The notes below the pieces were generated by a model. It was not told where the DNA came from. It did no database searches and worked only from the letters and a program-made list of their open reading frames with translations. From IMG/VR virus record IMGVR_UViG_3300012232_000014, positions 1 to 56,447 of that record: 56,447 nucleotides of DNA. One strand, given 5' to 3'. The first letter of the stretch is position 1; each line of letters begins with the position of its first letter. Positions 13,163 through 48,653 of this stretch are shown in pieces. A program made the position numbers and the translations under genes. The DNA comes from a virus (Duplodnaviria > Caudoviricetes).

Positions 13163-13164
13163 GA

Positions 13165-26667: not shown

Positions 26668-26695
26668 CCGTAAACCCGTTTCAAGGAGCATGACC

Positions 26696-27304: not shown

Positions 27305-27411
27305 GTGTGTTTTGAAATTCTGATCGACCCTAGGGGTGTGCGTTCAGGGGCATACCCCTATTCGTTCTGGGACCTGTGTGCGTTCCAAACTTCCAACCCA
27401 AGGAGAGCATC

Positions 27412-27780
27412 ATGAAGACCGATACACGCTCACGCATTTCGAAACACCACGTGTTCTATGTCCACAAACAATTCATGCGCAACCCGAAAAGCGTTCGACT
27501 GCCGTTGCCGGTCTCGGTGTTCTGCTACCGGATCACCGACACGTCGTTCGGTTTCATGTCGTCTCGAGACCGGATCACCGCACGAACGGAGCTCCAGGTG
27601 TTCGCTCAGAGCAAGGGCAAGAACCTTGGCTTCACAATCTACCGGGATGTGAACGGACCGATCGCCGCACAGATCTGTTTGTGGCATCAGGATGGTCAGC
27701 CGGGTGCATTGGCGATTCGGCATGGTGGAGTGCTGAAGGACTGCCGGAGTCGGAGCGTGGTGACCGGAAAGATGGTCTGA
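27412..27780 (+). CDS. Hypothetical protein
   Basis: AAGGAG RBS. Confidence 0.6.
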   Translation: MKTDTRSRISKHHVFYVHKQFMRNPKSVRLPLPVSVFCYRITDTSFGFMSSRDRITARTELQVFAQSKGKNLGFTIYRDVNGPIAAQICLWHQDGQPGALAIRHGGVLKDCRSRSVVTGKMV

Positions 27781-27782
27781 CC

Positions 27783-28355
27783 ATGTCAAGGATCAAACAC
27801 CGGAACCGACATCACGGGCATCTCTCTGAGAACGGTCGTGTGGCAGCGCTGTTGCTACCGCCGACTCCGCTCTACTGTCCGCCGTACACCAAGCGATACT
27901 ACGAGTCGTTTCGTGGGCAGTTATTTCAGGCGTGCAGCAACAAGCATCACCGGAACTGCCCACGGACGTCGGACCGTGCACACGAGCATCTGTACTGTCT
28001 CTGTCCGTGCCATCGAAAAGATCTGACACGATACCAGAAACGAAAGATGTTCGACCAACTCAAGAAAGCGATGTTGGCTAAGACCACACGCAAGACCAAG
28101 CACACGCCACGCACTAAAGGCGTGCGCACGGTTGGGAAGAAATTCCGATACGTCAAGGCGTCTGATGACCACGTCCCTGCTGGCATCATGCGCATCGTCC
28201 ATGGAACGATCGTGCGTATGAAAGAAGGTTCACTGGCAGACGTGGCGGCCGCATGCGATCTCGAGATCCGGAAAATCTCAAAGCAAGACCCAGTGACACA
28301 AACCAGCATCATGTTGCATCGGTTGCTGAAGGCCGGTGTGGTGGAGGTTATATGA
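27783..28355 (+). CDS. Cys/His domain plus winged-helix (HARE-HTH-like), paralogue 2
   Basis: ACSNKHHRNC...CLCPCH followed by GIMRIVHGTI...KQDPVTQTSIMLHRL. Confidence 0.7.
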   Translation: MSRIKHRNRHHGHLSENGRVAALLLPPTPLYCPPYTKRYYESFRGQLFQACSNKHHRNCPRTSDRAHEHLYCLCPCHRKDLTRYQKRKMFDQLKKAMLAKTTRKTKHTPRTKGVRTVGKKFRYVKASDDHVPAGIMRIVHGTIVRMKEGSLADVAAACDLEIRKISKQDPVTQTSIMLHRLLKAGVVEVI

Positions 28356-31905: not shown

Positions 31906-32025
31906 CTTGCTGGCTCGACGGGGGTTAAAATTTTCCCCCGTTGAGTCCGGCTCCGGGCGATAATCTCGCCTTCCCCGGAAGCTTCGACGGCGACGATGAT
32001 GGTGGCGAGGAAGGGATTTTGTTTC

Positions 32026-32751
32026 ATGAAAATTCGTCTGCGACGACGTGCGGATGTGCCACCGGTCCGCTCATTCAGAATTCGCAGAAGGAGGAAATTG
32101 GCACTAGACCGCACACTCTACATGCGGCCCATTCGACCAGTGCGCATCGGTCATGTCAACACGGCTTGGTCAAACGATGGATGGTACCGACACGGTCTTC
32201 CAATCAACAAGTCTTTAGTGCTGACACTGAAGTGCGGGCACGTCGAAATGGTACCGCAACGTCCGTTCAAACTTCGCAAGCTGGTTCACTGCCCGATGTG
32301 CGTGCGGCTGTGGACGGAACGGACGCTGGAAGCTGAAGAATCGAACGCACGCCAAGCAAAGGTTTCGAAACGGAAAGCTGAACTCGTCGAACAACTAGAG
32401 GAGAGAACAGACATGGCTAAGATCAAGAAGGCGAAGAAGAGCAATGACGATGACCGGCGTGGACGCAAGGTGTTCGAATTCGTGAAGGTGGCCAAGGGCG
32501 TCGAAGAAGGCACCATCATGGGCATCGTGCATGACGCGATCAAGAAGGTCAAGTCTGGCACGGTCGCCGAGATCACCGAAGCAGCGGTCAAAGGCGGACT
32601 CAAGGACGTCACCGGGCAGGATCCGATGGTCCAGACCGGCGTGATGCTCAACCGTCTGAAGCACAAGGGTGCGGTCCGCAAGGTCAAGGCTGACGGCAGC
32701 ACCAGCGAGAAGAAGGTCACGCTGAAACTGAAGAAGAAAAAGGCAGCCTAG
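32026..32751 (+). CDS. Zinc-binding domain plus Lys-rich winged-helix (HARE-HTH-like), paralogue 3; probable internal start at 32413
   Basis: LKCGH...CPMC; GAGGAG before ATG 32413; TIMGIVHDAI...GQDPMVQTGVMLNRL; Lys-rich tails. Confidence 0.7.
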   Translation: MKIRLRRRADVPPVRSFRIRRRRKLALDRTLYMRPIRPVRIGHVNTAWSNDGWYRHGLPINKSLVLTLKCGHVEMVPQRPFKLRKLVHCPMCVRLWTERTLEAEESNARQAKVSKRKAELVEQLEERTDMAKIKKAKKSNDDDRRGRKVFEFVKVAKGVEEGTIMGIVHDAIKKVKSGTVAEITEAAVKGGLKDVTGQDPMVQTGVMLNRLKHKGAVRKVKADGSTSEKKVTLKLKKKKAA

Positions 32752-34771: not shown

Positions 34772-35226
34772 AGAGCGTACTACAGGATTGGGTAATGGAA
34801 CTGCCATTACGAGAACAGGGCACGTTGCTGACCGCTGTGCGAGGCTGTGACGATGAACCCAAGCAATGGACATCCACCGGCTTCGCAGACTCACCGGGTC
34901 GTCGCATCACCGCGTTCATCCGATGGTGCTTCATGAATCCGCACGACCCACGAGAGGTTGATATCCCCGGAGCATTCTTCCAGAGCACTCCTCCACTGCC
35001 TTTCAGACCGTCCGAATTCGGACACCTGCCACAGCATTGGTATTCCCACGTCATGCACTCGCTGGAAGTGATCGCCTACCGGCACGATGTAGAGCCGGTG
35101 CGTGAAGTGTGCTTTGACTTATATCTGGCCATGGTTCGTAACTTGCATCTCAACATCGAACGGATGGACGAGATGATCACGCGGCTCAACGAGGATCGCA
35201 TTGCAAAACGGAACGTGGTATCGTAA
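34768..35226 (+). CDS. Hypothetical phage protein
   Basis: SVLQDWVMELPLREQGTLLTAVRGCD...LPQHWYSHVMHSLEVIAYRH. Confidence 0.75.
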   Translation: MKSVLQDWVMELPLREQGTLLTAVRGCDDEPKQWTSTGFADSPGRRITAFIRWCFMNPHDPREVDIPGAFFQSTPPLPFRPSEFGHLPQHWYSHVMHSLEVIAYRHDVEPVREVCFDLYLAMVRNLHLNIERMDEMITRLNEDRIAKRNVVS

Positions 35227-35711
35227 TGAGTTCTCTGCTCTCAATCGATCCCGGTCTCACCGGTACCGGATGGGCACTCTGGGTACCTCCATTCAAACGG
35301 CCGTGCTTGCTGGGTGTGATCAAGACCGGCAAGGGTGAGTGGTGGGATCGGGCCCAGTCCATCGCGGATCAGATCGTGGAGCACTGTGACACGCACACGC
35401 GAGTGGTTGCAGAGTTCACCGAGTACCATGCAGCGGTCACCAGCAGTATGGGATGGAAGACCGGGGATCTCCAACGTCTAACCTTTCTCTGTGGCGCGAT
35501 TGCTGGTCGGGTCTATCCACGAAAGTTTTTACCGGTGACGGCGTCAGGCTGGAAAGGACAACTGCCGAAAGACGTGGCCGCAAAACGCATAGAAGCGATC
35601 ATCGGTCGCAAGGCGTGTCAGCGACTCGGTCTGCCGGAAATCAAACGGCGGTCAGACACGCATGCATGGGACGCTGTCGGCATCGGACTCTGGGCACTGG
35701 ATCGGTTTTGA
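35226..35711 (+). CDS. ruvC: RuvC-like Holliday junction resolvase
   Basis: SIDPGLTGTGWA, VVAE, WKGQLPK and HAWDAVGIG motifs. Confidence 0.85.
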   Translation: MSSLLSIDPGLTGTGWALWVPPFKRPCLLGVIKTGKGEWWDRAQSIADQIVEHCDTHTRVVAEFTEYHAAVTSSMGWKTGDLQRLTFLCGAIAGRVYPRKFLPVTASGWKGQLPKDVAAKRIEAIIGRKACQRLGLPEIKRRSDTHAWDAVGIGLWALDRF

Positions 35712-36181: not shown

Positions 36182-37204
36182 ATGGCGCGCATCATTCAGA
36201 TGACACCTGTGAACGTCAAGACCTACAACCCCGAACGTGACGGTGTGAGCTACTCGACGTTGGCCAAGTTCAAAAACTGTCGCGAGCTCGCACGACTGCA
36301 TCTCAAGGGCTGGCGTCCCAAGCGACTGAGCATGGGCCGCGTCTTCGGCACCATCATGCATTCGTTGCTCCAGAAGGTACTAGAAGATCTCCGGTCCGGC
36401 AAACTGACCAAACCGCCGTCGGCGGAATACGTGAAGAAACATATCGCGAAGGTGGAGCAGCAGTGGCGTGCGGATAATCCGAAAGTCGATCACGAGACCT
36501 TAGGGTGGTTGGAAGTCACCTGTACGATTGCCGAAGCGGTGATGCCGAGCTACTTCAAATTCTGGAGCAAGGACGTCAAACTGAACTGGAACAAACCGGA
36601 AGCCGAATTCAAGTATCCGTTCGTCGTCAAGCATCCGTTTACGAAAAAGAAGATGCGGACGTTCCTACGCGGCAAGATCGACGCCAGCTTCTTCGACACC
36701 AGCAAGACGCGACCGTGGTTATTCGAAAGTAAGTCGAAGTCCCGCATCGGTGAGAGTGGGGAGTCGAACCTCACCGATATTCTGCCGCACGAGATGCAAG
36801 TGGGCATCTATCTGCTCATCCTCCAGATCATCCACGGTGGAAAGGTACCGGCAGGACTGCTGTACAATATCATCCGACGACCCACGGTCAAACCAAAGAA
36901 GAACGAAGACCTCGGCACCTTCGCTCAGCGCATCATTCGAGACGTCCAGAAACGGCCAGAGTACTACTTCATCCGGATGCGCATGACCGTGGACAGTCAG
37001 GATATGTTCCGCCGTCAGCAGGAACTCGAAGACGTGGTGTCCGATTTCCTTCTATGGTGGAAAGGCGAAGCCGGTCATTACAAGAACAGCGAGTACTGCG
37101 AAAACAAATACGGTACTTGCGACATGCTGCCGATCTGTGGGCGTGGAGATTACAGCAAACATTATCGTAAACAGGAAATTCTTTCTGAGATGGAGGAAGT
37201 ATGA
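36182..37204 (+). CDS. PD-(D/E)xK Cas4/RecB-like exonuclease
   Basis: SYSTLAKFKNC, FGTIMH, LRGKID...FESKS, QVGIY and C-terminal C...C..C motifs. Confidence 0.85.
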   Translation: MARIIQMTPVNVKTYNPERDGVSYSTLAKFKNCRELARLHLKGWRPKRLSMGRVFGTIMHSLLQKVLEDLRSGKLTKPPSAEYVKKHIAKVEQQWRADNPKVDHETLGWLEVTCTIAEAVMPSYFKFWSKDVKLNWNKPEAEFKYPFVVKHPFTKKKMRTFLRGKIDASFFDTSKTRPWLFESKSKSRIGESGESNLTDILPHEMQVGIYLLILQIIHGGKVPAGLLYNIIRRPTVKPKKNEDLGTFAQRIIRDVQKRPEYYFIRMRMTVDSQDMFRRQQELEDVVSDFLLWWKGEAGHYKNSEYCENKYGTCDMLPICGRGDYSKHYRKQEILSEMEEV

Positions 37205-38034
37205 ACCTGATTCACGCACACGTTGTCGTGATCGGCGGAGGTTACGTCGGTCAACTCATTCAGCATGCCATTCCGTCCGCACGATTGCTCGACTGGCGGA
37301 AGACGGCTCCGGCCGATCATCTCGAGACGCGCATCGGTCCGCAATACTTGTGGGAGCCAATCCCCGGACTGAAGTCGTACTCGTTTCCGGTGATCACGTT
37401 GGTAGACGGCAAGCCTCCCACCCCGGAATCTATTCTGGCTTACAAAAAGAAAATCGGGAAGCAAGACGATGAAGGTGATTGGGGACTTCAGTTCCAGCAT
37501 GAGACCGTTGGATGGCATAGCCATCTCCCGGTTCCTCGTGTTGAATATGATCGCAGGGTCCGATCCATTGATCTGGCTGCCCACACGCTTACGATGAAGG
37601 ATGAGGACGACGCGATCATTCATTACGACCTGCTGCTCAATACCATCCCTCTCGATTACTTCCTCCGACTCTGTGTGATTACGCCGCCAGTTCATTATCC
37701 ATGGCGGAATAATCCGATCTACATGACATCAGTGAATCCAGTCGATGCCACCGAAGGATACACTCTCAACTACATTTCCTCTCCAGAATTTGTTACCTAT
37801 CGTATCACGTTCACTCCCGGGAAAACCTTTTACGAAACACTGCTAGAACCGGCTGACCGAGACTTCGTGAAACTTGTGCCTGGCAAAATTCACCCGCATC
37901 CAGAGAGTGAAAAGATTCTGAAGGCCTTACGCATGTACGGCGTCCAGTGCTTCGGCCGCTATGCTACATGGCGTCCGGACGAGCTCGCCCACCAGACGTG
38001 GGAACACATCGTGGCATGGAGGGACTCGCTGTGA
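37201..38034 (+). CDS. FAD-dependent oxidoreductase (UDP-galactopyranose mutase / HemY-like fold)
   Basis: VVVIGGGYVG dinucleotide motif, GPQYLW, YDLLLNTIPL and C-terminal FGRYATW. Confidence 0.75.
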   Translation: MNLIHAHVVVIGGGYVGQLIQHAIPSARLLDWRKTAPADHLETRIGPQYLWEPIPGLKSYSFPVITLVDGKPPTPESILAYKKKIGKQDDEGDWGLQFQHETVGWHSHLPVPRVEYDRRVRSIDLAAHTLTMKDEDDAIIHYDLLLNTIPLDYFLRLCVITPPVHYPWRNNPIYMTSVNPVDATEGYTLNYISSPEFVTYRITFTPGKTFYETLLEPADRDFVKLVPGKIHPHPESEKILKALRMYGVQCFGRYATWRPDELAHQTWEHIVAWRDSL

Positions 38035-39071
38035 GTACGTACCCACCTGAACGACCGAATCTATTTGCGATGTACGAGGACCAGCGATTGTTCAATCAGC
38101 AAATCTGGACAAAGCCGTTGATCGCAAGAGACCTGACGGGACCGGAAGAGACCGCCTTCAGCGGACGGTTAAAAGATCTCTCGCTGGGAATCGTCGAAGA
38201 AGCGTTAGAGTTCCTCCGCACCTTCGAATGGAAAGTTCATCGCCGACGAAAGGGCAAACTTCAGAACGTCGCCCACTCGCACGAAGAACTCGTGGACATG
38301 TTCAAGTACTGGCTCTCACTGTGCGAGCTCTCCGAGTTTCCGATCGGGCAGTTGGAGGAGTTGTACTACGCAAAGAGTCGAGTGGTGCAGTATCGATACC
38401 AAGAGGAGTGGTTCAAGCAACTCGATGGACCGTGCGTGGCAGTCGATATCGATAACGTGCTAGCAGACTATACAGCCGGTCTAGCGGCATGGACGAAAGA
38501 GTGGGGGCAGCAGGTCTTGAAGCTGACCACGGTCGAGTCAACTCGACTCATATTGCGATTGGATGAACTACGAAGCCAGCGAGTGTTCTTCAACGCTGAG
38601 TCCACAGGACTCACGTTCGTGCAATGGAATGAACTTAAGCACGCATTTCGTTCCTCAGGTGGAAAACGAACGTTGCCACTCTGCCCGGATGCACGACCAT
38701 TTCTCGAATGGTGCTTCAGAAGCAACCTGACAATCTTACTGGTGACCAGTCGGCCGATCGATCAGTATCCGAACATCTTCACCGACACGATGACGTGGTT
38801 GTACACCAACAATCTGCCGTTCGATCATCTTTGGTGGGCGTCTGACAAGGCCGTACGGCTAGAAGAGATGCCGCGTCTGGCTCAGATCGTGTTTGCAGTA
38901 GATGACGATCTCCGATTCATTCATCAGTATCGTGCGAAAGGAGTGAAAGCCTACTGGCTGAATCCGCAAGCCTCGACCGATCAAATCGCCAACGAGGATT
39001 GCGTCCGTTCGTTGATGGACATCGTTCACAAAGAAGGAGAAGGTGATGGCCTACGAAGACGCGAAGCATAG
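38031..39071 (+). CDS. Fusion of dimeric dUTPase/MazG-like pyrophosphatase and HAD 5'-deoxyribonucleotidase
   Basis: IVEEALE...WKVH...EELVDMFKY...YYAKS; then VAVDIDNVLAD, VTSRP and AVDDD. Confidence 0.85.
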   Translation: MSTYPPERPNLFAMYEDQRLFNQQIWTKPLIARDLTGPEETAFSGRLKDLSLGIVEEALEFLRTFEWKVHRRRKGKLQNVAHSHEELVDMFKYWLSLCELSEFPIGQLEELYYAKSRVVQYRYQEEWFKQLDGPCVAVDIDNVLADYTAGLAAWTKEWGQQVLKLTTVESTRLILRLDELRSQRVFFNAESTGLTFVQWNELKHAFRSSGGKRTLPLCPDARPFLEWCFRSNLTILLVTSRPIDQYPNIFTDTMTWLYTNNLPFDHLWWASDKAVRLEEMPRLAQIVFAVDDDLRFIHQYRAKGVKAYWLNPQASTDQIANEDCVRSLMDIVHKEGEGDGLRRREA

Positions 39072-40404
39072 ACCGCATGCCGTGCACACCGGGGAGGATC
39101 CCCGCAATCCGATCACCTACGGACCCGAGAGTCTGAAGGTGACTCTCGATCGCTGGGGACCGGTGGACAATCTATTCACCTCCATGTACGACGCCTTGCA
39201 AGCAAACTGGGGTGACGCTCCGAGCCGGACGGTGAACCGAACAACGTATGGAGAATCTCCGAGGGGATGGAATCCGCCAGATGATCGCGTACCGTCGTCC
39301 GGTGGACGACAATTGTCAGATGATTATACCCGCACCGGGTGGCACGTTCTGTCAAATGACGAACGCGACTATATCGAATCCTGCTTCGCAGGCCGAACGT
39401 TGCAGCAGGTGCTCGAAGGCGTGACGTTCGATTTCTGTATCGATGGCGTCGCCCGAGCGTTCACCCACCAGAACGTGCGCACACGGCTCGGAGCCGGATT
39501 CATGCAACACGGTGGCCGGGACAACGACTGGCGCCACCGGGCGTGGACGATGCCGGAGACGATACGGCGAATGTGCGCCTACCATCACGCTGCTGATTTT
39601 GGGCCAGCGTCAGCCGTGCCGTGGATTGCAGGATCTGAAGACCTGAGGCACTGTATCACGGACTGGAATCCGATTGGTGAGTATCTGTCAACTCTGGAAG
39701 ATGTGAAACCGTCCGAAGGAGATTTTGACGAACCGGGGATGTCGATCCACGCCGCGATTTCAGAGCATCTCGAAAATACCCGACGGCTGTACGCGGCTCT
39801 GGTCGATGCCGGCATTCCTTGGCAGGACGCGCGACGCGTGTTGCCGATTGGGATGCAGACCTATATCCATGACCAGTACAATTATCTGGCCTTGGCTGGT
39901 GTGCTGGCCAATCGATTGGAGCACATCATGGATTGGGAATTCAACTGTGTCGCCCAGTTGATGCTGCGAGAGATCAAGATGAAGTGCCCGCCCCTCCTCT
40001 CAAAGTATCTCGGCAGCCACAGTGACCGTGCGAAGCAAGCGAAGTTTGCCGGTCTCGAGAGTTGGCCACCAGACGGAAAGTATCCGAGTCCCTATGACGA
40101 TTGCGAGCTCTGTGGTCATGCACGGTCTATGCATGTTGATCTTAAAACCGCAGCAAAGATCAGCGAGCGTTATCATCTCGAGACTCCACTCTATCCAGGA
40201 GAGATGGTCTGCTCAGAATGTGAACGAGAAGGAAACAAGGCTCGCACATCTCCGTTGCATAAACTCATTCCCAAAGATCGTCTTCCTCGGCAGCACCGAC
40301 CGGAGCAGATGCCGTTCTTCGTGTTGCATCCTGACAGCATGGCGGGCGGACCGATCGTTTGGATCGCAACCAACGGCACCTATCCGCACGATCAGGTGCG
40401 CTAA
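39046..40404 (+). CDS. Divergent flavin-dependent thymidylate synthase (ThyX-like)
   Basis: FDFCIDGVARAFTHQNVRTR...QHGGRD, LVDAGIPWQDARRVLP and RL...WE; 452 aa with extensions. Confidence 0.85.
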   Translation: MAYEDAKHRPHAVHTGEDPRNPITYGPESLKVTLDRWGPVDNLFTSMYDALQANWGDAPSRTVNRTTYGESPRGWNPPDDRVPSSGGRQLSDDYTRTGWHVLSNDERDYIESCFAGRTLQQVLEGVTFDFCIDGVARAFTHQNVRTRLGAGFMQHGGRDNDWRHRAWTMPETIRRMCAYHHAADFGPASAVPWIAGSEDLRHCITDWNPIGEYLSTLEDVKPSEGDFDEPGMSIHAAISEHLENTRRLYAALVDAGIPWQDARRVLPIGMQTYIHDQYNYLALAGVLANRLEHIMDWEFNCVAQLMLREIKMKCPPLLSKYLGSHSDRAKQAKFAGLESWPPDGKYPSPYDDCELCGHARSMHVDLKTAAKISERYHLETPLYPGEMVCSECEREGNKARTSPLHKLIPKDRLPRQHRPEQMPFFVLHPDSMAGGPIVWIATNGTYPHDQVR

Positions 40405-40536
40405 TGCCATGGGACGAAGACGATGATCGGTTCATCGACTATCTGGCCGAACATGAATCCGGGTTCATGGGCGGTATCCCGATTCGAATTGTCAGCTTCG
40501 AAGACGCCCTTCGAGAACTTGTAAATGAGGTGAATG

Positions 40537-41412
40537 ATGGCCGTGGTGAAACGGGAACCGCACAAGAAGAGCAAAAAGAACAAACACGACGAGGACGACG
40601 ACGAACCGCGCGAAAAATTTCAGCTGGCCACCGAGCTCACGGAGCCAAGCGACCATCTCGAGGACTACATCATCCTGCTCACCGGCGAAAAAAAGATCGG
40701 TAAGACCACGTTGGCCGGAGAGTTCGACTCCGACAAGTCCTACTTCCTCGCGACCGAAGTAGGCTACCGAGGCTTGCGAATTCGTAAGTCAGATATCCCG
40801 GATTGGCGCACCGCGAAGCAAGCAGCGAAGGCGTTACAGAAGGCCGGGAAGAAGTACGGACCGATCATCGTGGACACCGTGGACAAACTCTACACACTCT
40901 GCGAAGCGTACATCTGCGAGAAGCTGGCGATCTCGCATCTGTCGGATGAAGAGTGGGGCAAGGGCTATGCGGAATGCCGAAAGGAGTTTGATCGCTACAT
41001 CACCCTGCTCTCGCAAATCGGCGTGGGGCTCATTCTCATTTCACACACCGAGGAACGGGAAGTCAAACGTCGCGGTGGCGGCACCTACGATCGTATCGTA
41101 CCGACGATGTCCAAGCAGGCTCGGCAAGTCATCGAGCCACTCGTGGACATCTGGACCTACTACATGTACGACGGCGATCGTCGGCAGCTGGTGATCCAAG
41201 GAGACGACCACATCGCCGCTGGTCATCGACTCGTGGACCGGTTCCGCAGTCCGGCAGGGAAACCGATCCGCGCTATTGACATGGGCCGTTCTGCCAAGCG
41301 TGCCTACAGGAATCTCATCTCGGCCTTCAACAATGAATACGAACCGCCGGATGAAGAACAGGCAGAGGAGGAGCCGAAGAAATCGAAGTCATTTAAAATC
41401 CGTCGGGCATGA
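40537..41412 (+). CDS. Sak4-like AAA ATPase (ssDNA-annealing recombinase)
   Basis: LTGEKKIGKTT, IIVDTVD, WGKGY and LILISH motifs. Confidence 0.85.
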   Translation: MAVVKREPHKKSKKNKHDEDDDEPREKFQLATELTEPSDHLEDYIILLTGEKKIGKTTLAGEFDSDKSYFLATEVGYRGLRIRKSDIPDWRTAKQAAKALQKAGKKYGPIIVDTVDKLYTLCEAYICEKLAISHLSDEEWGKGYAECRKEFDRYITLLSQIGVGLILISHTEEREVKRRGGGTYDRIVPTMSKQARQVIEPLVDIWTYYMYDGDRRQLVIQGDDHIAAGHRLVDRFRSPAGKPIRAIDMGRSAKRAYRNLISAFNNEYEPPDEEQAEEEPKKSKSFKIRRA

Positions 41413-41465
41413 GCTACGGCATTCTGTCGAAGCTACGTGACGAGGACAACCCAGGAGAGGCACCA

Positions 41466-42410
41466 GTGGCGAAAGCAAAAGCAGATCTCGACAAGCGTCT
41501 GGCACGTGCATTCAAGAAGTGGGACTCCGTCAAGGAGGACGTTAAGAGTGGAGGCTTCGAGGAGTTCGATGACGGCCGCTATCGTGCGCGACTGATCAAG
41601 AGCGAGATCGGCGTCTCCGGCAACGACCGCCTGCAAGTACTGATGCACTGGAAGTTCTTGACTGGCGAGTACAAAGGCAAGGTCAAGATCGCTTATCAAG
41701 GCATCGAGACCGAGGAGAACCTGACCTACTTCGGCCGTGACCTTCAGCGGTTCGGTTACGAGACCGATGACATCGAAGGTCCGGATGACATCAAGGGCAT
41801 TCTGAAAGAACTCAACAAGGAAAAACCCAAGGCCAAGATCTCGTTGAAGACCAAGGGCGATTTCCAGAACGTCAACATCCTCGCGGTGGACGGGCAGGAC
41901 GATGACGAAGCTGCCGACGACGAGGACGGCGACGAAGAAGAAGAGAAGCCGAAGAAGAAGAAATCCAAGAAGTCGGATGATGACGAATCCGAGGAAGAGG
42001 AATCCGAGGAAGAGGAATCTGAAGACGAAGAAGAGGAAGAAGAGAAGCCGAAGAAAAAGTCGAAGAAGAAAGCGGCCGACGAGAAAGAGGAAGAAGAGGA
42101 AGAGGAAGAAGAAGAGGAGGACGATAAGCCGAAGAAGAAAAATAAGAAGTCCTCCGATGACGACGAAGAAGAGGAAGAGGAATCTGAAGAAGAGGACGAA
42201 GACGGCGAAGATGTCGAAGTCGCCGTCGGGTCCAAGATCACGTACAAGTTCAAGGGAAAGAAGTACGAAGGCGTGGTGTTGGACATCTTCGCGAAGAGCA
42301 ACGAAGTGCGTGTCGAGACGGATGAGAAGAAACGCAAGATCTCCTTCGACAACGTGCTGGACGTCGAGGTTCCCGAGAAGCCGAAGAAGAAACTGAAGAA
42401 AAAGAAGTAA
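41466..42410 (+). CDS. DUF669-like SSB with a long charge-block linker and a C-terminal SH3/Tudor-like domain
   Basis: FEEFDDGRYRARLIKSE...GEYKG...FQNVNI; E/D and K blocks; VGSKITYKFKGKKYEGVV. GTG start after GGAG; alternative ATG at 41409. Confidence 0.8.
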   Translation: MAKAKADLDKRLARAFKKWDSVKEDVKSGGFEEFDDGRYRARLIKSEIGVSGNDRLQVLMHWKFLTGEYKGKVKIAYQGIETEENLTYFGRDLQRFGYETDDIEGPDDIKGILKELNKEKPKAKISLKTKGDFQNVNILAVDGQDDDEAADDEDGDEEEEKPKKKKSKKSDDDESEEEESEEEESEDEEEEEEKPKKKSKKKAADEKEEEEEEEEEEEDDKPKKKNKKSSDDDEEEEEESEEEDEDGEDVEVAVGSKITYKFKGKKYEGVVLDIFAKSNEVRVETDEKKRKISFDNVLDVEVPEKPKKKLKKKK

Positions 42411-42460
42411 CCAGCTTGGCGGCAGGCTCTGGATAATGAACGCCAGCGGCCACCGCTAGG

Positions 42461-42515
42461 AACCAGCCGACACCATCCGGCTTACCAATGCCCGTAACGT
42501 GTCGGCTGGTTTTTT
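42461..42515 (+). terminator. Intrinsic terminator
   Basis: 13-bp stem AACCAGCCGACAC/GTGTCGGCTGGTT followed by a T-tract. Confidence 0.8.
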
Positions 42516-42531
42516 ATTTCTGGAGATGATC

Positions 42532-43092
42532 ATGCGAGCGTATGAACAGATTGCGATCAAGACCTTTGACGTCGCCCAGCGCGTTCAGGATAATGCGTGG
42601 ACGCGTGCGTTCGACGAGCACGGTCAAGCAGATCTGATGAAATGGAAACGTGATGACGTCAGCGCGGTGCATATTTATTTGCACCCCGATTATATGCCGG
42701 TGCCGATTGGTTCCAGCTTCCGTGTCCGGCTCGCGTTCAACTACGACCTGATCCCCGGCAAGGAACTAGAGTTAATTCAGCTGCTGGAAGGTCAGACGGT
42801 TCAACTCATGCTCGGAGAGCCAGGTGAGGGTCTGTCCCATCTGGGATATCACATTCCTGATAGCATGTGGCTGCTGACCGAACTCGATTGGTGGAATGTA
42901 CAGGGATTCGCCTGCACGCAGATTTCGGTGACCACCGAACATACCGGTACGAATCGCCGGTATCTGTACGCCTTCGTCGATACCCGGCAACAGATCGGAG
43001 CCTACACCAAGATCATTTCACGCATGACCGGATCTCGAGATCTGAGCTCGTTGGTCGAGGAGTACAGTCATGTTAACACTACCCGACGGTAA
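42532..43092 (+). CDS. VOC (glyoxalase / methylmalonyl-CoA epimerase-like) protein
   Basis: YEQIAI, ELELIQLLEG, GLSHLGYHI and YAFVDTRQQIG motifs. Confidence 0.7.
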   Translation: MRAYEQIAIKTFDVAQRVQDNAWTRAFDEHGQADLMKWKRDDVSAVHIYLHPDYMPVPIGSSFRVRLAFNYDLIPGKELELIQLLEGQTVQLMLGEPGEGLSHLGYHIPDSMWLLTELDWWNVQGFACTQISVTTEHTGTNRRYLYAFVDTRQQIGAYTKIISRMTGSRDLSSLVEEYSHVNTTRR

Positions 43093-43492
43093 TTCGTTCG
43101 TAGATCTCCGGCTTCGACTTCTGCGTCTGGCCGGATATCCGGATCCCGGTGAGCGGTACGTCGAACACGGCAAACGAAACGCACGCATCCATTGGGAATT
43201 CAAACTCATTCTGAGCGTGCTGGAAGAAGTCGCGGCACGAAAGGTGGATGGCTACGGTCCCTTTCGCTATGATGAGATCGAAAACAACTGGCGATGGGAG
43301 ATCCAATCGTTGTACCAGGATATCGAACGAAAATTTGGTCGGTTGAAAACCATGGTACGGCCAGACCCGATTGAGCAAGAGGACGCGGATAGCTTGCTCG
43401 AGATCCTCTCAGACCTGGCCGTATACAGTGCACGTGCTATTCAGATCATCGTACGGTTGGAAGATAGAATGAAGGAGAAGGTGAAGGTATGA
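43070..43492 (+). CDS. Nmad1/DUF1599-like all-alpha nucleotide-modification-associated protein
   Basis: ARKVDGYG...DIERKFGRLK...LSDLAVYS pattern. Confidence 0.6.
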   Translation: MLTLPDGNSFVDLRLRLLRLAGYPDPGERYVEHGKRNARIHWEFKLILSVLEEVAARKVDGYGPFRYDEIENNWRWEIQSLYQDIERKFGRLKTMVRPDPIEQEDADSLLEILSDLAVYSARAIQIIVRLEDRMKEKVKV

Positions 43493-44226
43493 ATATATTC
43501 ATTACCGGTGCAGATAGTGGACTCGGACGGAAGCTAACGCAAGTTTTTCGGTTGGGTGGCGGTCACACTGTGATCGGGACCACGCACGAGAATAAATTAT
43601 CTCATGACCCTGAGCTCATGTACTTTGAAGCGGACTGTGGGCAGGAGGGAATTGATCGCGTACGAGACTCTGTCGTGCGGCAGTTTGGGGAACCACCGGA
43701 GGAAGGGATCGACGTGCTGATCAACAACGCCGGCACCAACGCCATCTGTCCCTTCGAAGCGTTGACGCACGAATTCATTCGCCACATCATGTACGTAAAC
43801 TTCCTATCGCCAGTTATGCTGACGCAAGCGTTACTGCCATGGTTCAAGAAACCCGGCATCGTGGTGAACATCATCTCGGATGCCGCGTGGCGACCGATGC
43901 GGCACTCACTCGCGTACAATTGCAGCAAGGCTGCATTCGATATGGCGACACGGCAGATGGCGCGAGAGCTCACCAAGCCTCAGAACATCTCCATCATCGG
44001 CGTGCGGCCGGGGAAGATGGCACATACCGGTATGTCTGACTATATCAATAAACGCGTCCAGGAAGTGCGTGGGTGGTCCCCGCAAGAGGCAATGGATTAC
44101 TTCCGAGCCAACAGCGTCTCCGGTCTGGAACTCCAACCGATCGATGTGGCGATGTTCGTGCACCATATCGTGACCAGCGGTATGGCGCGGCAGTTGTCCG
44201 GTTCGTGCATCGACCTGGTTGGTTGA
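43489..44226 (+). CDS. Classical short-chain dehydrogenase/reductase
   Basis: ITGADSGLG, INNAG, catalytic YNCSK and PG motif. Confidence 0.92.
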   Translation: MNIFITGADSGLGRKLTQVFRLGGGHTVIGTTHENKLSHDPELMYFEADCGQEGIDRVRDSVVRQFGEPPEEGIDVLINNAGTNAICPFEALTHEFIRHIMYVNFLSPVMLTQALLPWFKKPGIVVNIISDAAWRPMRHSLAYNCSKAAFDMATRQMARELTKPQNISIIGVRPGKMAHTGMSDYINKRVQEVRGWSPQEAMDYFRANSVSGLELQPIDVAMFVHHIVTSGMARQLSGSCIDLVG

Positions 44227-44360
44227 TGAAAGCTTTTCTCGATCCCACAAACTATCCTCCGTTGTGTAACTGTGGTCGTGATGGAAAAGGAATTCTCGAT
44301 TATGTTTATTCGTACTTCTGGAGATGTCGAGTATGTAATCGGTGGTGGAGGCTTTGGTAA
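44226..44360 (+). CDS. 44-aa zinc ribbon
   Basis: CNCG...CRVC; TGATG coupling. Confidence 0.5.
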   Translation: MKAFLDPTNYPPLCNCGRDGKGILDYVYSYFWRCRVCNRWWRLW

Positions 44361-46472
44361 GTGCTAAAGCTTCTCGACAACACGTTGATCTTCGATACGG
44401 AGACCACGGGACTCTGGCCGTGGCCTACTGAGTATCGAAAGAAAATGTGCATCAAGCCGGATCGTCCGTTCCTCTTCGTGTTCACGAATCTGGAAGGTGA
44501 CACGGTCACGGTGCGTGCACCGAAAATCAATCCCTACACACGGCGTGTAAGCTATAAGGGTATTGAAGCCGAACTCCGGTGGTTCAAGAAATTCGTAGCC
44601 AACCCCGACAACCGAATTGTCTGCCACCATGCTCGGTTCGATCGAGCCATGACGATGCAGTCCGATATCCAAGCACAGTGGAATTGCCACATCCACGATA
44701 CGCGAGTGATGGCTCGTATCGCCAACCCGACCAACGAACCGACCTTTGCACTGAAGCCGTTGGCGAAAAAGTATCTCGAGATTGACGACGCGGATCTGGC
44801 CGCATTGAAAAAGGGCGTCGCGATCGCACGACGTCAAGCCAAAGCCAAGGGCTGGACCATCGCCACAAAAGAGTCGCACGGTCAACATCCGGCCGAAGCT
44901 GACTACTGGTTACCAGACGTCGAAACACTCGTGGACACCTATGGCGGCACGGACGGTCTGCGGACCGCAGGTCTATATCGGTTCTACCGGAAGTTGTTCG
45001 ATCACAATAAAAAGTTCGGTGGACGGCTGTGGGAAATGTATCGATGGGAACGTCGTACGATGCGAACGGCCATGGAGATGGAACGCGTCGGCATGACGTA
45101 CCATTCGAAGGCCGGACTCGCGTTACGAAAAATGTACACGGCGTACATGCAGGAGCATCGCACGGCTCTAGATCGTCGCGGCTACAAGGATTTGAATCTT
45201 CAGTCACCCAAGCAGTTAGTGAATTTGTTCGTGAACCAACTCGGCTATCATACCGAGCATGAAACGAAGGGTGGGAAATTCGAGCGACCGCAACCGAAGA
45301 TTGATGCCGAGCAATTGATGGTCTGGGCACGCGGATCCGCTGCGGGTGCAGACGTAGACGGTGACGCCAAGGACGGCTGCAGGATCAGTCGGAACGTACT
45401 AGAGTGGAAGGCCGGAAAGAAAGTCATCGAGTACATCGACTCGTACGAATTCTTCAAATGCAAACGGGCAGATGGTTCCACCGTGCATCACCCGGCATGG
45501 GACAGTGCGGGAGCTCGGACCGGACGCTTCAGTTGTCACGATCCCAACGAGATGCAGATCGCGTCCGCAGAGACCAGCCGTCGGCACAGCCACATCCGAG
45601 CACGTCAACGGGAGTGCTTCGGTCCACGTCCAGGGTACTACTGGTACATGCCGGATTATTCCCAGATCGAAGTCTGGGTGTTTGCATTCGAAGCCAACGA
45701 AGAGTCGATGAAGCAAGCATTGCTCTCTGGGAGTGATTTTCATCTCTCGACCGCGCGAGCCGCATGGCATGACCGTGATGATTTCTGTACGTGCGGCCGT
45801 TGGAAGGAAGTCGAGCAGGAGATGCGTCGGAACAAGAAGTTCATCTTGGTCTGGGATGTGGAGAAGACCAAGCACAAAAAGGGATGTCTGATCAAGTGGT
45901 GGCGTCAGCGCGCCAAGATGATTCTGTTCTCGAGACTGTACGGTGGAGGCATCGATAAGATCGCCTTCCTGATTCGCTGCACGCGAAAGGAAGCTAAGCG
46001 GTTCATCGCCGAATTCAACGAGAACCTGCCGGGTGTAAAAACCTACATGCGCGAGACCGTTGATCGTGTGCGAGAGACCGGCATGCTGATCAATCTGTTC
46101 GGTCGAGAGTACCCGATCGATAAGAACTTCGCGTACAAGGCCGTCAACTATCAGATTCAAGGAAGCAGTGCGGAGATCATGAAGCGTGCGACCGTGCGCG
46201 TCAACGATCATCTGCTTGAAAACTATCCCGGTGAGTGGGCCTACGACGAAGACCTGAATGAAGAGTACCACGGCTCACATGTGGCCGGGACTGTGCATGA
46301 CGAACTCATCAGCGAGATTCATCCAGACGATCACAGCAAGCAACTGATGCGTGAGATCGTGCACCTGATGCAAAAAGATTCACACGTCGTCCCGAATCTC
46401 CACGTGCCTCTCCCGGTGGGGATGAAGTGGACGAAGACGAATTGGTCTGAAGCCAAAGAGATTTCATTGTAA
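44361..46472 (+). CDS. polA: DNA polymerase family A with 3'-5' exonuclease
   Basis: ExoI FDTETTG, ExoII HHARFD, ARTGRFS, motif A DYSQIE, motif B RQRAKMILFSRLYG, NYQIQG and motif C VHDEL. Confidence 0.95.
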   Translation: MLKLLDNTLIFDTETTGLWPWPTEYRKKMCIKPDRPFLFVFTNLEGDTVTVRAPKINPYTRRVSYKGIEAELRWFKKFVANPDNRIVCHHARFDRAMTMQSDIQAQWNCHIHDTRVMARIANPTNEPTFALKPLAKKYLEIDDADLAALKKGVAIARRQAKAKGWTIATKESHGQHPAEADYWLPDVETLVDTYGGTDGLRTAGLYRFYRKLFDHNKKFGGRLWEMYRWERRTMRTAMEMERVGMTYHSKAGLALRKMYTAYMQEHRTALDRRGYKDLNLQSPKQLVNLFVNQLGYHTEHETKGGKFERPQPKIDAEQLMVWARGSAAGADVDGDAKDGCRISRNVLEWKAGKKVIEYIDSYEFFKCKRADGSTVHHPAWDSAGARTGRFSCHDPNEMQIASAETSRRHSHIRARQRECFGPRPGYYWYMPDYSQIEVWVFAFEANEESMKQALLSGSDFHLSTARAAWHDRDDFCTCGRWKEVEQEMRRNKKFILVWDVEKTKHKKGCLIKWWRQRAKMILFSRLYGGGIDKIAFLIRCTRKEAKRFIAEFNENLPGVKTYMRETVDRVRETGMLINLFGREYPIDKNFAYKAVNYQIQGSSAEIMKRATVRVNDHLLENYPGEWAYDEDLNEEYHGSHVAGTVHDELISEIHPDDHSKQLMREIVHLMQKDSHVVPNLHVPLPVGMKWTKTNWSEAKEISL

Positions 46473-46481
46473 AGGATACCG

Positions 46482-48653
46482 GTGCCCACATCTACGTCCA
46501 CAAAACTTCGTCCGTTCGAAACTCACGGTGTTGAGTTCACCGGTGAACGTGGTGACGAACGATACGGGACCTGCCCATTTACCGGCAAGGCAGAAAAATT
46601 CTACGTCAACGTCAAGACCGGGTTGTGGGATAGTAAGACCGCTGGACTCTCCGGCAACATCCCACAGTTCCTTCAACAGATTTCCAAACTGTATGTCAGC
46701 CAGATGACAGAGCCGATCCTTCGACGTCTGGCCGATGACCGTAGCTTGCCAACGCTAGCGTTCAAGAATTGGCAGGTGGGTTGGGATGGACGGAACTATA
46801 CGATTCCGATTCGTGATCTGGATGGCAACGTCGTTGACATTCGTATCTATCACCTGGGTCGGAACATGATTTCGACCGGTGGGTGCCATGTCGGACTGTT
46901 GGGAGCCGAGCGTATCGGCCGCAAGTCCGAACCGATCTATCTCTTCGAAGGCGAGTGGGACACGGTGGCCGCGTCGCTCATCATGCAGAAGATCGGGATC
47001 CCCGGAGTGTGCGTAGGCGTGCCTGGTGCCGGCATCTTTAAGCCGGAATGGATCCCGTGGTTCGCTGGACGCATCGTGCACACGCACTACGACAAAGACA
47101 GTGCAGGCGAAGCCGGGGAGCAGCTGATTGATAAACGGCTCGCTGGGGTGGCCAAGAGCGTGACCTACGTACACTGGCCGGAAGATCTCCCGGAAGGGTT
47201 TGATGTCCGTGATTGGATCGTGTATGGGCTGACTAAACGCACACCCAAGAAATCGTGGGCACGACTGACGCGACTGTACGAACCAAAACCACGTGTTCGA
47301 GAATTGCCGCCAGCGAAGCCTCAGACGTACACTCTGAAGAGGAAGAAAGGAAAGCTACGACTCGCATGGAAGAAACCGCCGACACTCGATGATGTGCATG
47401 ATGTGTTTCGGAAGTGGCTGTTCCTCGACAGCACTAACGGTATCGACGTACTGCTGGCGACGATGATTTCGCAGCGACTCGAAGGTCCGCCAGTGTGGCT
47501 GTTCCTCGTGGGCCCACCAGGATCCGCGAAGACCGAACTGATCTCATCGTTACACGATCTGGATGACGTCTATTCCACAAGCACCGTCACGCCGCACTCG
47601 TTGATCTCTGGTGCAAACTTCGCTGGCATGAAACAGGATCCGTCGCTCATTCCGAAACTGAACGGCCGAGTGTTGGTGGTCAAAGATTTCACCGCCGTGA
47701 TGGGTGCGAAGGATCAGGAGAAGGACGAGATCTTTAGCATCTTGCGTGACGCCTACGACGGCTCTTGTGGCAAGGTATTTGGCAACGGCGTTGAACGCGC
47801 CTACGATTCACGGTTCACGGTGATCGCGGCCGTGACGCCGATGATCTACGATGTCGGCACACGGCATGCACAACTTGGCGAACGGTTTCTGAAGTTCAGC
47901 ATGGCCGACAATCTGAACCACCCGGACGAATACGCGATCATCTCGAGAGCGATCGACAACACCGATCGCGAGACCAAGATGAAGAAAGAGATCCGGGACG
48001 TGGTGCGAGAGTTCGTGGAACGCACCTTGAAAGACGTGGTGCTCCCAACGATCTCTCCGGAACTGAAAGACCGATTGATCTGGCTGGGGAAGTTCGGTGC
48101 ACGTATGCGCGGCACGGTGTCTCGAGATTCGTACCGCAACGATGTCATCACGTCCAGGCCGTCAGCAGAAGTCGGTAGTCGGTTAGGGATCCAACTCGCG
48201 AAGTTGGCGCGGTCGTTGGCCATGCTGCACAAACGCGAGGAAGTAAACGAAGACGATTTCATAATCGTGAAGAAGGTGATGCTCGATACCGTGATGCAGC
48301 GCACGGAAGACGTGCTGCGCATCTTGCATCTCGCATGGGATCGCGGACCGGTCTCGACCGTGGAGCTCGCGACCGAGACGCGATATCCGCAAGCCACCGT
48401 GTTGCGGCTGTTGCAGGATTTGCACGTGCTCGATATCGTCGTGCGCACCGGCAGCAGCTACAAGCACAAGTGGCGTGTCTCCGACTACGTGCACGAATGT
48501 ATTACGAATTGCGGCATGTACACCACCGATGAAGAACGGTCTCGCACCACCGGTCTGCAAATCAAATTGCGACGCATGAAAGGTCAGACAAAATTCAAAC
48601 TGGCACGTGTGCTGCGCATGGCGTCCGGAGCGAGCTCTCCGGGGACCTCATAA
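46482..48653 (+). CDS. Primase-helicase (TOPRIM plus AAA+ ATPase plus C-terminal wHTH)
   Basis: CPF N-terminal ribbon, LFEGEWD, YDKDSAG, GFDVRD, LVGPPGSAKT and LVVKDF motifs. Confidence 0.88.
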   Translation: MPTSTSTKLRPFETHGVEFTGERGDERYGTCPFTGKAEKFYVNVKTGLWDSKTAGLSGNIPQFLQQISKLYVSQMTEPILRRLADDRSLPTLAFKNWQVGWDGRNYTIPIRDLDGNVVDIRIYHLGRNMISTGGCHVGLLGAERIGRKSEPIYLFEGEWDTVAASLIMQKIGIPGVCVGVPGAGIFKPEWIPWFAGRIVHTHYDKDSAGEAGEQLIDKRLAGVAKSVTYVHWPEDLPEGFDVRDWIVYGLTKRTPKKSWARLTRLYEPKPRVRELPPAKPQTYTLKRKKGKLRLAWKKPPTLDDVHDVFRKWLFLDSTNGIDVLLATMISQRLEGPPVWLFLVGPPGSAKTELISSLHDLDDVYSTSTVTPHSLISGANFAGMKQDPSLIPKLNGRVLVVKDFTAVMGAKDQEKDEIFSILRDAYDGSCGKVFGNGVERAYDSRFTVIAAVTPMIYDVGTRHAQLGERFLKFSMADNLNHPDEYAIISRAIDNTDRETKMKKEIRDVVREFVERTLKDVVLPTISPELKDRLIWLGKFGARMRGTVSRDSYRNDVITSRPSAEVGSRLGIQLAKLARSLAMLHKREEVNEDDFIIVKKVMLDTVMQRTEDVLRILHLAWDRGPVSTVELATETRYPQATVLRLLQDLHVLDIVVRTGSSYKHKWRVSDYVHECITNCGMYTTDEERSRTTGLQIKLRRMKGQTKFKLARVLRMASGASSPGTS

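Follow-up and report, generated by a model that had tools for sequence, protein, structure and literature searches.

A histidine-less ThyX-like enzyme paired with a truncated mutase-like flavoprotein in a candidate pyrimidine-modification module of an uncultured phage

Overview of the module

Does the cluster of redox and nucleotide enzymes that runs into the DNA polymerase gene of an uncultured phage build an unusual DNA base, or does it supply thymidylate by an unfamiliar route? The stretch analysed here (hereafter the window; 56,447 bases, one IMG/VR virus record, IMGVR_UViG_3300012232_000014) is a phage genome with a completeness estimate of 98%, and most of the region of interest was found in the contigs of a single sequencing run, a freshwater-sediment metagenome. 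An earlier note on this DNA had listed at 37,201–46,472 a FAD oxidoreductase, a dUTPase/HAD fusion, an altered ThyX, a vicinal oxygen chelate (VOC) protein, an Nmad1-like protein, a short-chain dehydrogenase/reductase (SDR) and PolA, and had read them as a base-replacement pathway. All of these genes were present on the plus strand at those coordinates; the domain calls stood for the FAD flavoprotein, the dUTPase/HAD fusion, the altered ThyX, the VOC protein and the SDR, but not for the Nmad1-like protein, which had no Pfam match and no specific fold match. The best explanation of the region is a pre-replicative pyrimidine-nucleotide module. Its core consists of a ThyX-like enzyme, a second flavoprotein and a pyrophosphatase–nucleotidase fusion, to which exchangeable cassettes appear to have been added.

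The conserved core

The ThyX-like flavoenzyme (39,043–40,404, plus strand; likely start ATG 39,046; 452 aa) scored 68.1 bits against Pfam Thy1 (gathering cut-off 24.8; 69.5 bits in the genome scan) and 56.5 bits against the NCBIfam equivalog TIGR02170, under its cut-off of 87.9. Matches to ThyX structures in the Protein Data Bank (PDB) reached E ~1e-6 over the C-terminal half, and the protein is twice the canonical ThyX length, with conserved N- and C-terminal extensions. The ThyX signature RHRxxSxxxxSxRY and the upstream 'EH' histidine were not found in the window protein: RHR reads RTR, S-x-R-Y reads GGR-D with a one-residue insertion, and 'EH' reads EG. These motifs were compared between 11 divergent lineages (10 linked to the second flavoprotein, FADl, plus locus L054) and five canonical phage or virus ThyX proteins (STSV1, Eggerthella phage, mycobacteriophage BuzzBuzz, cyanophage S-WAM1 and Campylobacter phage CP39). 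The 'EH' histidine was present in 4/5 canonical and 0/11 divergent proteins, RHR in all five versus one of the 11, and S-x-R-[YF] in all five versus three of the 11. Four arginines (the first R of RxR, the S-x-R arginine, the DAR arginine and a late R) were retained in all 11 divergent lineages, and the second R of RxR in 10 (K in L103). The retained arginines are presumably the residues that hold dUMP in canonical ThyX, and the lost residues presumably sit on the FAD-adenylate/folate/NADPH side of the enzyme.

The block around the altered motif was invariant in 19 sequences with overall identity down to 55%, and it was identical in the two types of related loci described below, which carry either a VOC protein (VOC-type) or a glycosyltransferase (GT-type). 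The family comprised 303 clusters at E<=0.001, wholly metagenomic; PF02511 was assigned to all 120 clusters listed and PF00550 also to one (P0014), and their contigs were mostly 50–78 kb long. Canonical ThyX relatives were found in 1123 phage records. As a separate observation, the ThyX-like protein of a GT-type relative (L014:10001-11533) bears a C-terminal acyl-carrier-protein-like domain (PF00550 precomputed for P0014), in which the phosphopantetheine serine of the DSL motif reads E by eye.

The gene before the fusion (37,201–38,034, plus strand) encodes a 277-aa protein, FADl, described here as a truncated UDP-galactopyranose-mutase-like flavoprotein of the amine-oxidase fold. FADl had no Pfam match even at E<=10, and single-sequence PDB searches were uninformative for both FADl and the fusion, so that profiles were required. 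A profile of 14 homologues (alignment A5) matched eukaryotic UDP-galactopyranose mutases (UGM) in the PDB, with 4dsg at E 1.9e-8. The FADl motifs are an invariant N-terminal GxGxxG, an invariant YR and a C-terminal GR(F/Y)xxW; in the profile alignment, YR corresponds to the UGM FYR and the GRFxxW block to the UGM GRFGxW. Moreover, the Atlas model of FADl had amine-oxidase/PPO-like neighbours (PF01593 clusters) at template-modelling scores of 0.80–0.84. Taken together, FADl is by profile homologous to UGM and carries a predicted Rossmann FAD motif. The arginine that it shares with UGM presumably corresponds to the one that binds diphosphate there. The full three-domain UGM architecture with its substrate-binding helical domain was not found: FADl has 277 aa versus 484–519 aa in the matched UGM chains (~480–520) and is thus about 200 residues short, and of 4dsg only residues 225–334 plus short ends were aligned.

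Between these two genes lies the dUTPase/HAD fusion (open reading frame (ORF) 37,947–39,071, plus strand; likely start ATG 38,016 or 38,070), which was assigned from profiles against the PDB, from PHROG and from its likeness to gp70 of a Gordonia phage. The profile of its N-terminal domain (alignment A9) matched the dimeric dUTPases 1w2y (E 1.6e-4), 2cje (3.6e-4) and 4dk2 (3e-3) and, at 0.012, DCTPP1; a PHROG NTP-pyrophosphohydrolase match (PHROG 173/415/420) was obtained at E 2e-4, and in A9 residues E44, E73 and D76 were invariant and E47 nearly so. The N-terminus is therefore predicted to be a dimeric-dUTPase-like all-alpha NTP pyrophosphatase. In the HAD domain the motifs DxDxV, TSRP and DDD were invariant, and this domain matched Gordonia phage gp70 with 26.5% identity (E 2e-16). 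The window fusion itself had no Pfam match at E<=10, and the best Pfam family of gp70 was NT5C (PF06941) at 24.3 bits versus a cut-off of 24.8; the C-terminus is thus a putative NT5C-like HAD 5'-deoxynucleotidase, its nearest family lying below the cut-off and reached via the homologue.

To place the module in other genomes, 48 related viral loci were fetched and gene families were located in them by tblastn. The rows L006, L007 (identical to L008), L053 (L014's contig), L019 and L021 (the window itself) were dropped, and independent lineages are fewer than the locus counts because several loci are near-duplicates (L024/L027, L049/L050, L046/L047, L037/L038/L040 and L030/L031). The gene arrangement is not a chance one, since it recurs in these loci. 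FADl and the dUTPase/HAD fusion lay between the ThyX-like gene and a PD-(D/E)XK (Cas4-like) exonuclease gene in 33 of the 34 loci that span both, and the FADl matches were full-length. In the window this exonuclease is encoded at 36,182–37,204 on the plus strand (Pfam PDDEXK_1 E 1.4e-12; PHROG exonuclease), and in the relatives it always preceded the module. The sole exception among the 34 was L054, which has neither FADl nor the fusion; after its single-stranded-DNA-binding protein (SSB) gene (12962-14660) it encodes a nucleoside 2-deoxyribosyltransferase-family protein (62.8 bits), a YfbR-like (HD) 5'-deoxynucleotidase (77.4 bits) and a small P-loop kinase. As L054 has the YfbR-like enzyme despite lacking the fusion, the dNMP nucleotidase function appears to have been kept there by a non-homologous enzyme.

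The link between FADl and ThyX extended beyond these close relatives. In six distant loci found by a FADl profile scan (L101-L106), a ThyX homologue lay within 5 kb in 6/6, the dUTPase/HAD fusion was present in 4/6 and the SDR in 2/6. The FADl profile matched none of the five phage or virus records with canonical ThyX and all five positive controls, three actinophages among them. Since canonical ThyX occurs in 1123 phage records and FADl was absent from the five tested, FADl marks the minority with deviant motifs. Comparison of the loci thus shows a core of FADl, the dUTPase/HAD fusion and the ThyX-like enzyme, in which the two flavoproteins would form a functional pair joined to the nucleotidase fusion.

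Carriers among cultured actinophages

The window has no close cultured relative, because the region gave zero megablast matches against 50,697 phage records, FADl none by tblastn at E<=1e-3 and the ThyX-like protein four records, all weak, and because the window PolA showed at most ~25% identity to cultured-phage polymerases among the 15 best records listed, with all 210 matched records below 60%. More distant carriers were nevertheless reached through the HAD domain, which matched Gordonia phage OtterstedtS21. The module of this phage comprises a Cas4 exonuclease, a RecA-like protein, an acidic protein, an 'oxidoreductase', the HAD protein, small proteins, a methyltransferase and an SDR, followed by DnaE. 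Its gp69 'oxidoreductase' was a FADl homologue (hhalign probability 96.6%, E 6.9e-10), and homologues of gp69 were found in 126 phage records, by host Gordonia (46), Microbacterium (36), Mycobacterium (32), Streptomyces (9), Arthrobacter (2) and Nocardia (1).

A Thy1 protein was found in three of three actinophage records holding a FADl homologue. In Microbacterium phage Anakin, the FADl homologue stands immediately before a 439-aa ThyX-like gene, and in mycobacteriophage BigMama the order is oxidoreductase, HAD, methyltransferase, helical protein, SDR, DnaE, one further gene and ThyX-like. The window SDR aligned with Gordonia gp75 at 29.7% identity (E 3e-25) with a common block VRGWSxxEAMDY, and judging by this alignment it is the orthologue of the actinophage 'FabG-like reductase'. 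In a published genome announcement (PMC11385102), the gene phamilies (phams) are distributed over clusters AE, BN, D, DG, DV and EF for the oxidoreductase, AE, BN, D, DV and EF for the phosphatase, D, DG and DV for the methyltransferase, D, DV and EF for the FabG-like reductase, and D, DG, DV and EF for ThyX-like. The literature found on this gene set gives annotation labels only, none of it testing function. The co-occurrence that the earlier proposal called for was accordingly observed in the uncultured relatives, in the L101-L106 lineages and in cultured actinophages.

Accessory cassettes and polymerase lineages

The remaining enzymes of the window varied among the relatives. At 42,499–43,092 (plus strand; likely start ATG 42,532) lies a gene for a 197-aa protein whose AlphaFold model (pLDDT, the predicted local distance difference test, 88.5) had as its best Foldseek match 3gm5, a putative methylmalonyl-CoA epimerase (E 3.4e-8, probability 1.00). 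Foldseek gave 39 matches at E<=1e-3, and the 33 of them listed were all VOC superfamily members, with methylmalonyl-CoA epimerases (MMCE), 4-hydroxyphenylpyruvate dioxygenase (HPPD) and glyoxalases likewise at probability 1.00; the Atlas lead was Glyoxalase_4 (0.91). By sequence alone the signal was weak (PDB profile E 0.2; no Pfam match). On this model, the protein is predicted to have the VOC fold, with methylmalonyl-CoA-epimerase-type members nearest. The classical, FabG-like SDR (43,489–44,226, plus strand) belongs to Pfam adh_short (104.8 bits; phrog_3142 E 2e-30) and contains TGADSGLG (TGxxxGxG) and YNCSK (YxxxK); it is generic, with matches to 204 families, including pteridine reductase at E 1e-16.

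The 140-aa protein between them (43,070–43,492, plus strand), which the earlier note had called Nmad1-like, consists of four helices with invariant K/R and D/E residues (alignment A3). It had no Pfam match at E<=10, PDB profiles gave none, its model was poor (pLDDT 66) without Foldseek matches at E<=1e-3, and a VIA-wide fold search yielded generic helical bundles (best Z 8.7), a range that is uninformative for helical proteins. No Nmad1/DUF1599 Pfam match was found at E<=0.1 for L008 p157, Gordonia gp72, Anakin gp54, BigMama gp63 or L046 c15, and the literature search on Nmad1 and DUF1599 returned nothing relevant, so that the Nmad1-like identity is unsupported. Against the c15 protein of sister phages, hhalign gave a probability of 25% (E 8e-4), and the 140-aa protein is possibly a distant relative of c15 and of actinophage gp72/gp63/gp54.

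Among 29 loci spanning SSB to PolA, the VOC, helical and SDR genes were present together in 11, c15 (141–205 aa) stood in their place in 17, and L054 had neither. A GT-A protein of 250–295 aa was encoded near the ThyX-like gene in 14 of the 17 c15 loci and in none of the 11 VOC loci, and in L005, L008 and L015 a radical S-adenosylmethionine (SAM)/SPASM gene followed the GT. The Pfam matches of this GT were all under threshold: TAGT (PF20691) in 3/15 members at E<=0.01 (best E 7.5e-5; the first member 22.6 bits versus a cut-off of 27.5) and Glyco_tranf_2_3 in one member; no PDB sequence match was obtained. In whole records, the GT profile matched 0/5 VOC-type and 5/5 GT-type genomes, and the VOC profile 0/5 GT-type and 5/5 VOC-type genomes. 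The comparison thus shows the VOC, helical and SDR genes as an apparently swappable accessory cassette, never accompanied by the TAGT-like GT (with or without radical SAM). That FADl makes UDP-galactofuranose for the GT of the sister phages was considered and dropped, because FADl is kept where the GT is absent. In L010 (1945-3556), the TAGT-like glycosyltransferase is present in two tandem copies, 44% and 52% identical to the L008 copy.

The polymerase varied with the cassette. The window PolA (44,361–46,472, plus strand; Pfam DNA_pol_A E 3.7e-52), a family A DNA polymerase with a 3'-5' exonuclease region, was 49–81% identical to that of the seven VOC-type loci covered and 31–35% to that of 17 others, in which the primase was 49–56% identical (32% in L054). 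By these identities there are two PolA lineages (loci L008, L014, L015, L023, L025, L028, L033 and others differ from the window), and the polymerase appears to have been swapped together with the adjacent cassette. Other genes were also seen between SSB and PolA: L036 (3952-5387) encodes a staphylococcal-nuclease homologue (SNase E 2.4e-7) and an NPPF-motif methyltransferase-like protein with weak matches, and L024 (14633-15271) a DNA N6/N4 methyltransferase (E 6.1e-7).

Possible products of the module

We tentatively prefer the reading, at somewhat less than an even chance, that the two flavoproteins together make a C5-modified deoxyuridylate, later tailored by the cassettes, with a chemistry that we infer from the gene content. 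In this scheme, the dUTPase domain would supply dUMP, and the ThyX-like enzyme, with FADl as reductase or second flavin component, would convert it into a C5-substituted deoxyuridylate other than dTMP, for which 5-hydroxymethyl-dUMP or 5-hydroxy-dUMP would be the simplest candidates. The nucleotidase would remove the competing canonical dNMP, host kinases and the phage PolA would put the product into DNA, and a lineage-specific cassette would tailor it, here the VOC protein and the SDR by epimerase/ketoreductase-type chemistry on the handle. This reading is preferred because the hallmark ThyX residues are systematically lost, the second flavoprotein is obligatory, tailoring-type neighbours (GT, radical SAM, methyltransferase) are present, L054 retains the nucleotidase function through a non-homologous enzyme, and the flavin-dependent 5-hydroxy-dCMP synthases of RB69 and DLP3, which are ThyA homologues whose product is glycosylated, offer a precedent. 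Bacillus phages with 5-hydroxymethyluracil or uracil in their DNA induce dTTPase/dUTPase and dTMP nucleotidase activities, and the fused dUTPase–nucleotidase would provide such activities.

Markers of the known routes were not found, as the earlier note had maintained. ThyA (PF00303) was found in neither the window (0/1) nor the GT-type relatives (0/5), and among the real genes of the window the Sak4 ATPase alone has a Walker A motif. The thymidine hypermodification pathway was not found in the window, which has no ThyA-type hydroxymethylase and no P-loop 5-hydroxymethyldeoxyuridine (5-hmdU) DNA kinase, aGPT-Pplase not having been profile-searched. Tet_JBP was likewise not detected in the GT-type genomes (0/5), a weak result since the control was also silent; with neither ThyA nor Tet_JBP found, these genomes show no alternative source of a modified base.

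In its most specific form, the proposal is that a histidine-less ThyX-fold enzyme and a stripped-down UGM-like flavoprotein install a C5 hydroxyl or hydroxymethyl on deoxyuridylate, as the first ThyX-derived base-modification pathway, which cassettes (GT with or without radical SAM, SAM methyltransferase, or VOC plus SDR) diversify, each cassette going with a replicative polymerase of its own; the carriers would be a clade of uncultured sediment phages and over 100 actinophages in culture. We regard this fuller version as possible, though distinctly short of probable.

Several observations weigh against a modified base, which may be present in the DNA but is a candidate resting on gene comparison. 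In the window, GTCGAC occurs 0 times versus 13.5 expected, CCCGGG once versus 11.6 and CCGCGG once versus 10.5, and G006, a VOC-type genome, avoids these three sites too; in the GT-type genome G001, 16 six-base palindromes are avoided, including CCCGGG (0 versus 33.7) and CGATCG (0 versus 19.6), as well as GATC. The DNA is therefore not generally immune to type II enzymes, and the avoidance argues against a full or blanket-protective hypermodification; any modification of T would be partial or not broadly protective. No avoidance of palindromes was seen in G004. Furthermore, every dUMP-site arginine is kept in the ThyX-like enzyme, which is compatible with plain dTMP synthesis. No dNMP kinase was found in the window, the GT assignment is under the Pfam threshold, and the co-variation of VOC and PolA is explicable by block inheritance, since the genes are adjacent. 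The literature searches also found no report of odd DNA in the more than 100 cultured actinophages that carry the gene set. Replacement of cytosine was discarded as unlikely, because sites made of C and G only are avoided. Separately, GAGCTC is over-represented in the window (27 versus 9.7 expected).

Ordinary dTMP supply is the strongest alternative, and we consider it a real possibility, little less likely than the preferred reading, if one that falls clearly below an even chance. The ThyX-like enzyme and FADl would then be a two-component flavin-dependent thymidylate synthase in which FADl replaces the lost NADPH/folate-side functions; the dUTPase domain would feed it dUMP and keep dUTP low, and the nucleotidase, the SDR, the VOC protein and the sister GT would do unrelated jobs (pool balancing, host dNMP disposal, surface glycans). 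The Thy1 domain scoring above threshold, the nucleotide-site arginines kept in 11/11 divergent lineages save one R-to-K change (L103), and the nearness of the fusion N-terminus to true dimeric dUTPases all agree with it, as does the palindrome avoidance, which implies that the DNA is still exposed to restriction. No other thymidylate synthase was found in the window or five relatives, so that the ThyX-like enzyme would be the sole phage source of dTMP; the lack of a dNMP kinase in the window and the frequency of canonical ThyX in phages (1123 records) fit as well. However, dTMP supply offers no explanation for the conserved neighbours (FADl, SDR, VOC, methyltransferase, GT and radical SAM), a dTMP synthase would lose its substrate to the nucleotidase that is fused to the domain producing dUMP, the TIGR02170 threshold is missed (56.5 versus 87.9), and the ThyX signature is broken in nearly all FADl-linked lineages.

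It is unlikely, in our estimate, that the module instead makes or recycles a small molecule or cofactor, such as a pterin/folate or flavin in reduced form that the ThyX-like enzyme would use, or a nucleoside derivative directed against the host. In the pterin version, the pyrophosphatase and phosphatase would act with an epimerase-type VOC protein and a pteridine-reductase-type SDR. The SDR matches do include pteridine reductase (E 1e-16), the VOC protein is nearest to CoA-ester epimerases, some ThyX-like proteins bear an acyl-carrier-protein-like domain (P0014 with PF00550; L014), and FADl keeps the UGM arginine in the profile alignment. Yet the SDR matches are generic (204 families), the nearest families are deoxynucleotidases for the HAD domain and dUTPases for the pyrophosphatase, rather than pterin enzymes, the ORFs scanned included neither a GTP cyclohydrolase nor any other pterin gene, and most relatives that share the core lack the cassette.

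The mechanism of the earlier note, in which the FAD enzyme, the VOC protein and the SDR assemble a side chain of aldehyde or sugar origin for the ThyX homologue to place at C5 before replication, to give an alkyl or polyol base like the dihydroxypentyluracil of phage SP-15, is very improbable. The enzyme types are truly present, VOC and SDR chemistry suits carbonyl handling, and in actinophage clusters D, DV and EF members of the SDR and FADl families again accompany ThyX-like (PMC11385102), but the VOC, helical and SDR genes are missing from 18/29 loci and 5/5 GT-type genomes with the same ThyX-like block, and the SP-15-like enzyme set reported in PMC13697223 does not match the window. As the trio occurs in 11/29 loci and 0/5 GT-type genomes and the active-site block is invariant without it, what the ThyX-like enzyme installs would be independent of the trio.

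Returning to the preferred reading of a C5-modified deoxyuridylate, modified DNA bases would, if it is true, have a further enzymatic origin, in a ThyX-fold enzyme that depends on a second flavoprotein. Should the enzymes make dTMP after all, the strict pairing of FADl with a histidine-less ThyX still points to an undescribed two-protein flavin-dependent thymidylate synthesis; the two were found paired in several lineages of uncultured viruses as well as in those cultured actinophages that were inspected. Phages of Mycobacterium smegmatis, Gordonia and Microbacterium that are easy to grow carry the gene set, which brings the question within reach of routine assays.

Gene layout and neighbouring genes

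Two genes interrupt the enzyme genes of the window. A Sak4-like single-stranded-DNA-annealing ATPase is encoded at 40,534–41,412 (plus strand; Pfam AAA_24 E 3e-35; phrog_124 E 3.1e-34), followed at 41,409–42,410 on the same strand by an acidic low-complexity protein whose SSB label reflects its position only, conserved after Sak4 in the relatives. The latter had no significant Pfam or PHROG match, and its central ~120 aa are almost all E, D and K. Downstream of PolA, a primase/helicase (46,482–48,653, plus strand; phrog_47 DNA primase E 2.3e-7) is likewise conserved. Gene junctions overlap by 4–29 nt, the exceptions being gaps of ~90–135 nt before Sak4, VOC and PolA, so that the earlier description of the genes as mostly translationally coupled is fair. 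Scans for promoters and terminators performed no better than shuffles (8 versus 6.4 expected; 10 versus 9.7).

Elsewhere in the window, three ORFs (26456-26947, 27336-28355 and 31996-32751) share by eye a C-terminal domain of ~70 aa, reading F.(F/Y)VK ... GIM.(I/V)V(H/Y) ... QDP(V/M).QT..ML.RL, and look like paralogues. In addition, a 161-aa protein (35226-35711) has by eye a RuvC-type-resolvase-like start (SIDPG...) with no Pfam match at E<=0.01, and a 149-aa protein (20720-21169) shows by eye GSR...SGGAxGxD, resembling SLOG/DprA-type Rossmann proteins.

Comparison with known systems

No paper giving these genes a function, or connecting ThyX with a UGM-like protein, was found, supplements being outside the search, and to this extent the cluster matches no characterised pathway. 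To our knowledge, the characterised pre-replicative pyrimidine modifications in phages all start from ThyA-fold enzymes.

The T-even/SPO1-type replacement systems (for the T-even paradigm, see PMC13326640) resemble the window in combining an all-alpha dNTP pyrophosphatase and a thymidylate-synthase-type enzyme in the replication module, to which sister phages add a GT; the window differs in having a ThyX rather than a ThyA fold, no dNMP kinase, an extra UGM-like flavoprotein and a fused nucleotidase. Thymidine hypermodification employs 5-HMUDK and aGPT-Pplase (PMC8989533); the window has no P-loop kinase besides Sak4. In the SP-15-like phages a ThyA homologue is reported together with a dCTP deaminase, a dUTP-hydrolysing enzyme and, in several of them, aGPT-Pplase (PMC13697223), so that the SP-15 analogy drawn earlier for the window does not carry over.

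Another parallel comes from RB69 and DLP3, where ThyA homologues serve as flavin-dependent 5-hydroxy-dCMP synthases and arabinosyl or other glycosyl groups are then added to what they make (Lee et al., NAR 2026, PMC13326640). These enzymes share with the arrangement proposed here a thymidylate-synthase-type enzyme, flavin chemistry for a new C5 group and tailoring by GT; they differ in being ThyA homologues that act on dCMP with cognate kinases, whereas the window avoids C-only sites, which argues against C replacement. The same paper places a UGM in a predicted cluster of Rhizobium phage RL38J1, and the word ThyX is absent from it.

The actinophage gene set (clusters D, DG, DV and EF; e.g., BigMama, OtterstedtS21 and Anakin) has in common with the window homologous FADl, HAD and SDR proteins, a small helical protein and a divergent ThyX-like enzyme, all beside the replicase. 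Its replicase is DnaE in place of PolA, its ThyX-like enzyme belongs to another subfamily (RQR, S-x-R-F), a SAM methyltransferase occupies the place of the VOC protein, and the dUTPase-like domain is not fused to HAD. From UGM, to which it is likened by profile homology, the predicted Rossmann FAD motif and the YR/FYR and GRFxxW/GRFGxW blocks, FADl differs in being ~200 residues shorter and in occurring with ThyX-like regardless of a GT. The ThyX-like enzyme, in turn, shares with canonical ThyX the Thy1 fold family, the matches to PDB ThyX structures and the arginines aligned with the dUMP site, and differs in its greater length, its motifs RTR/GGR-D/EG, its score under the TIGR02170 cut-off and its association with FADl, whose profile was silent in 5/5 canonical-ThyX records. 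Finally, PolB, a ThyX paralogue of polyoxin biosynthesis (likened here by its description in PMC5954106), belongs to Streptomyces secondary metabolism and still methylates UMP and dUMP, but provides a precedent for the recruitment of a ThyX paralogue to another C5-modification pathway.

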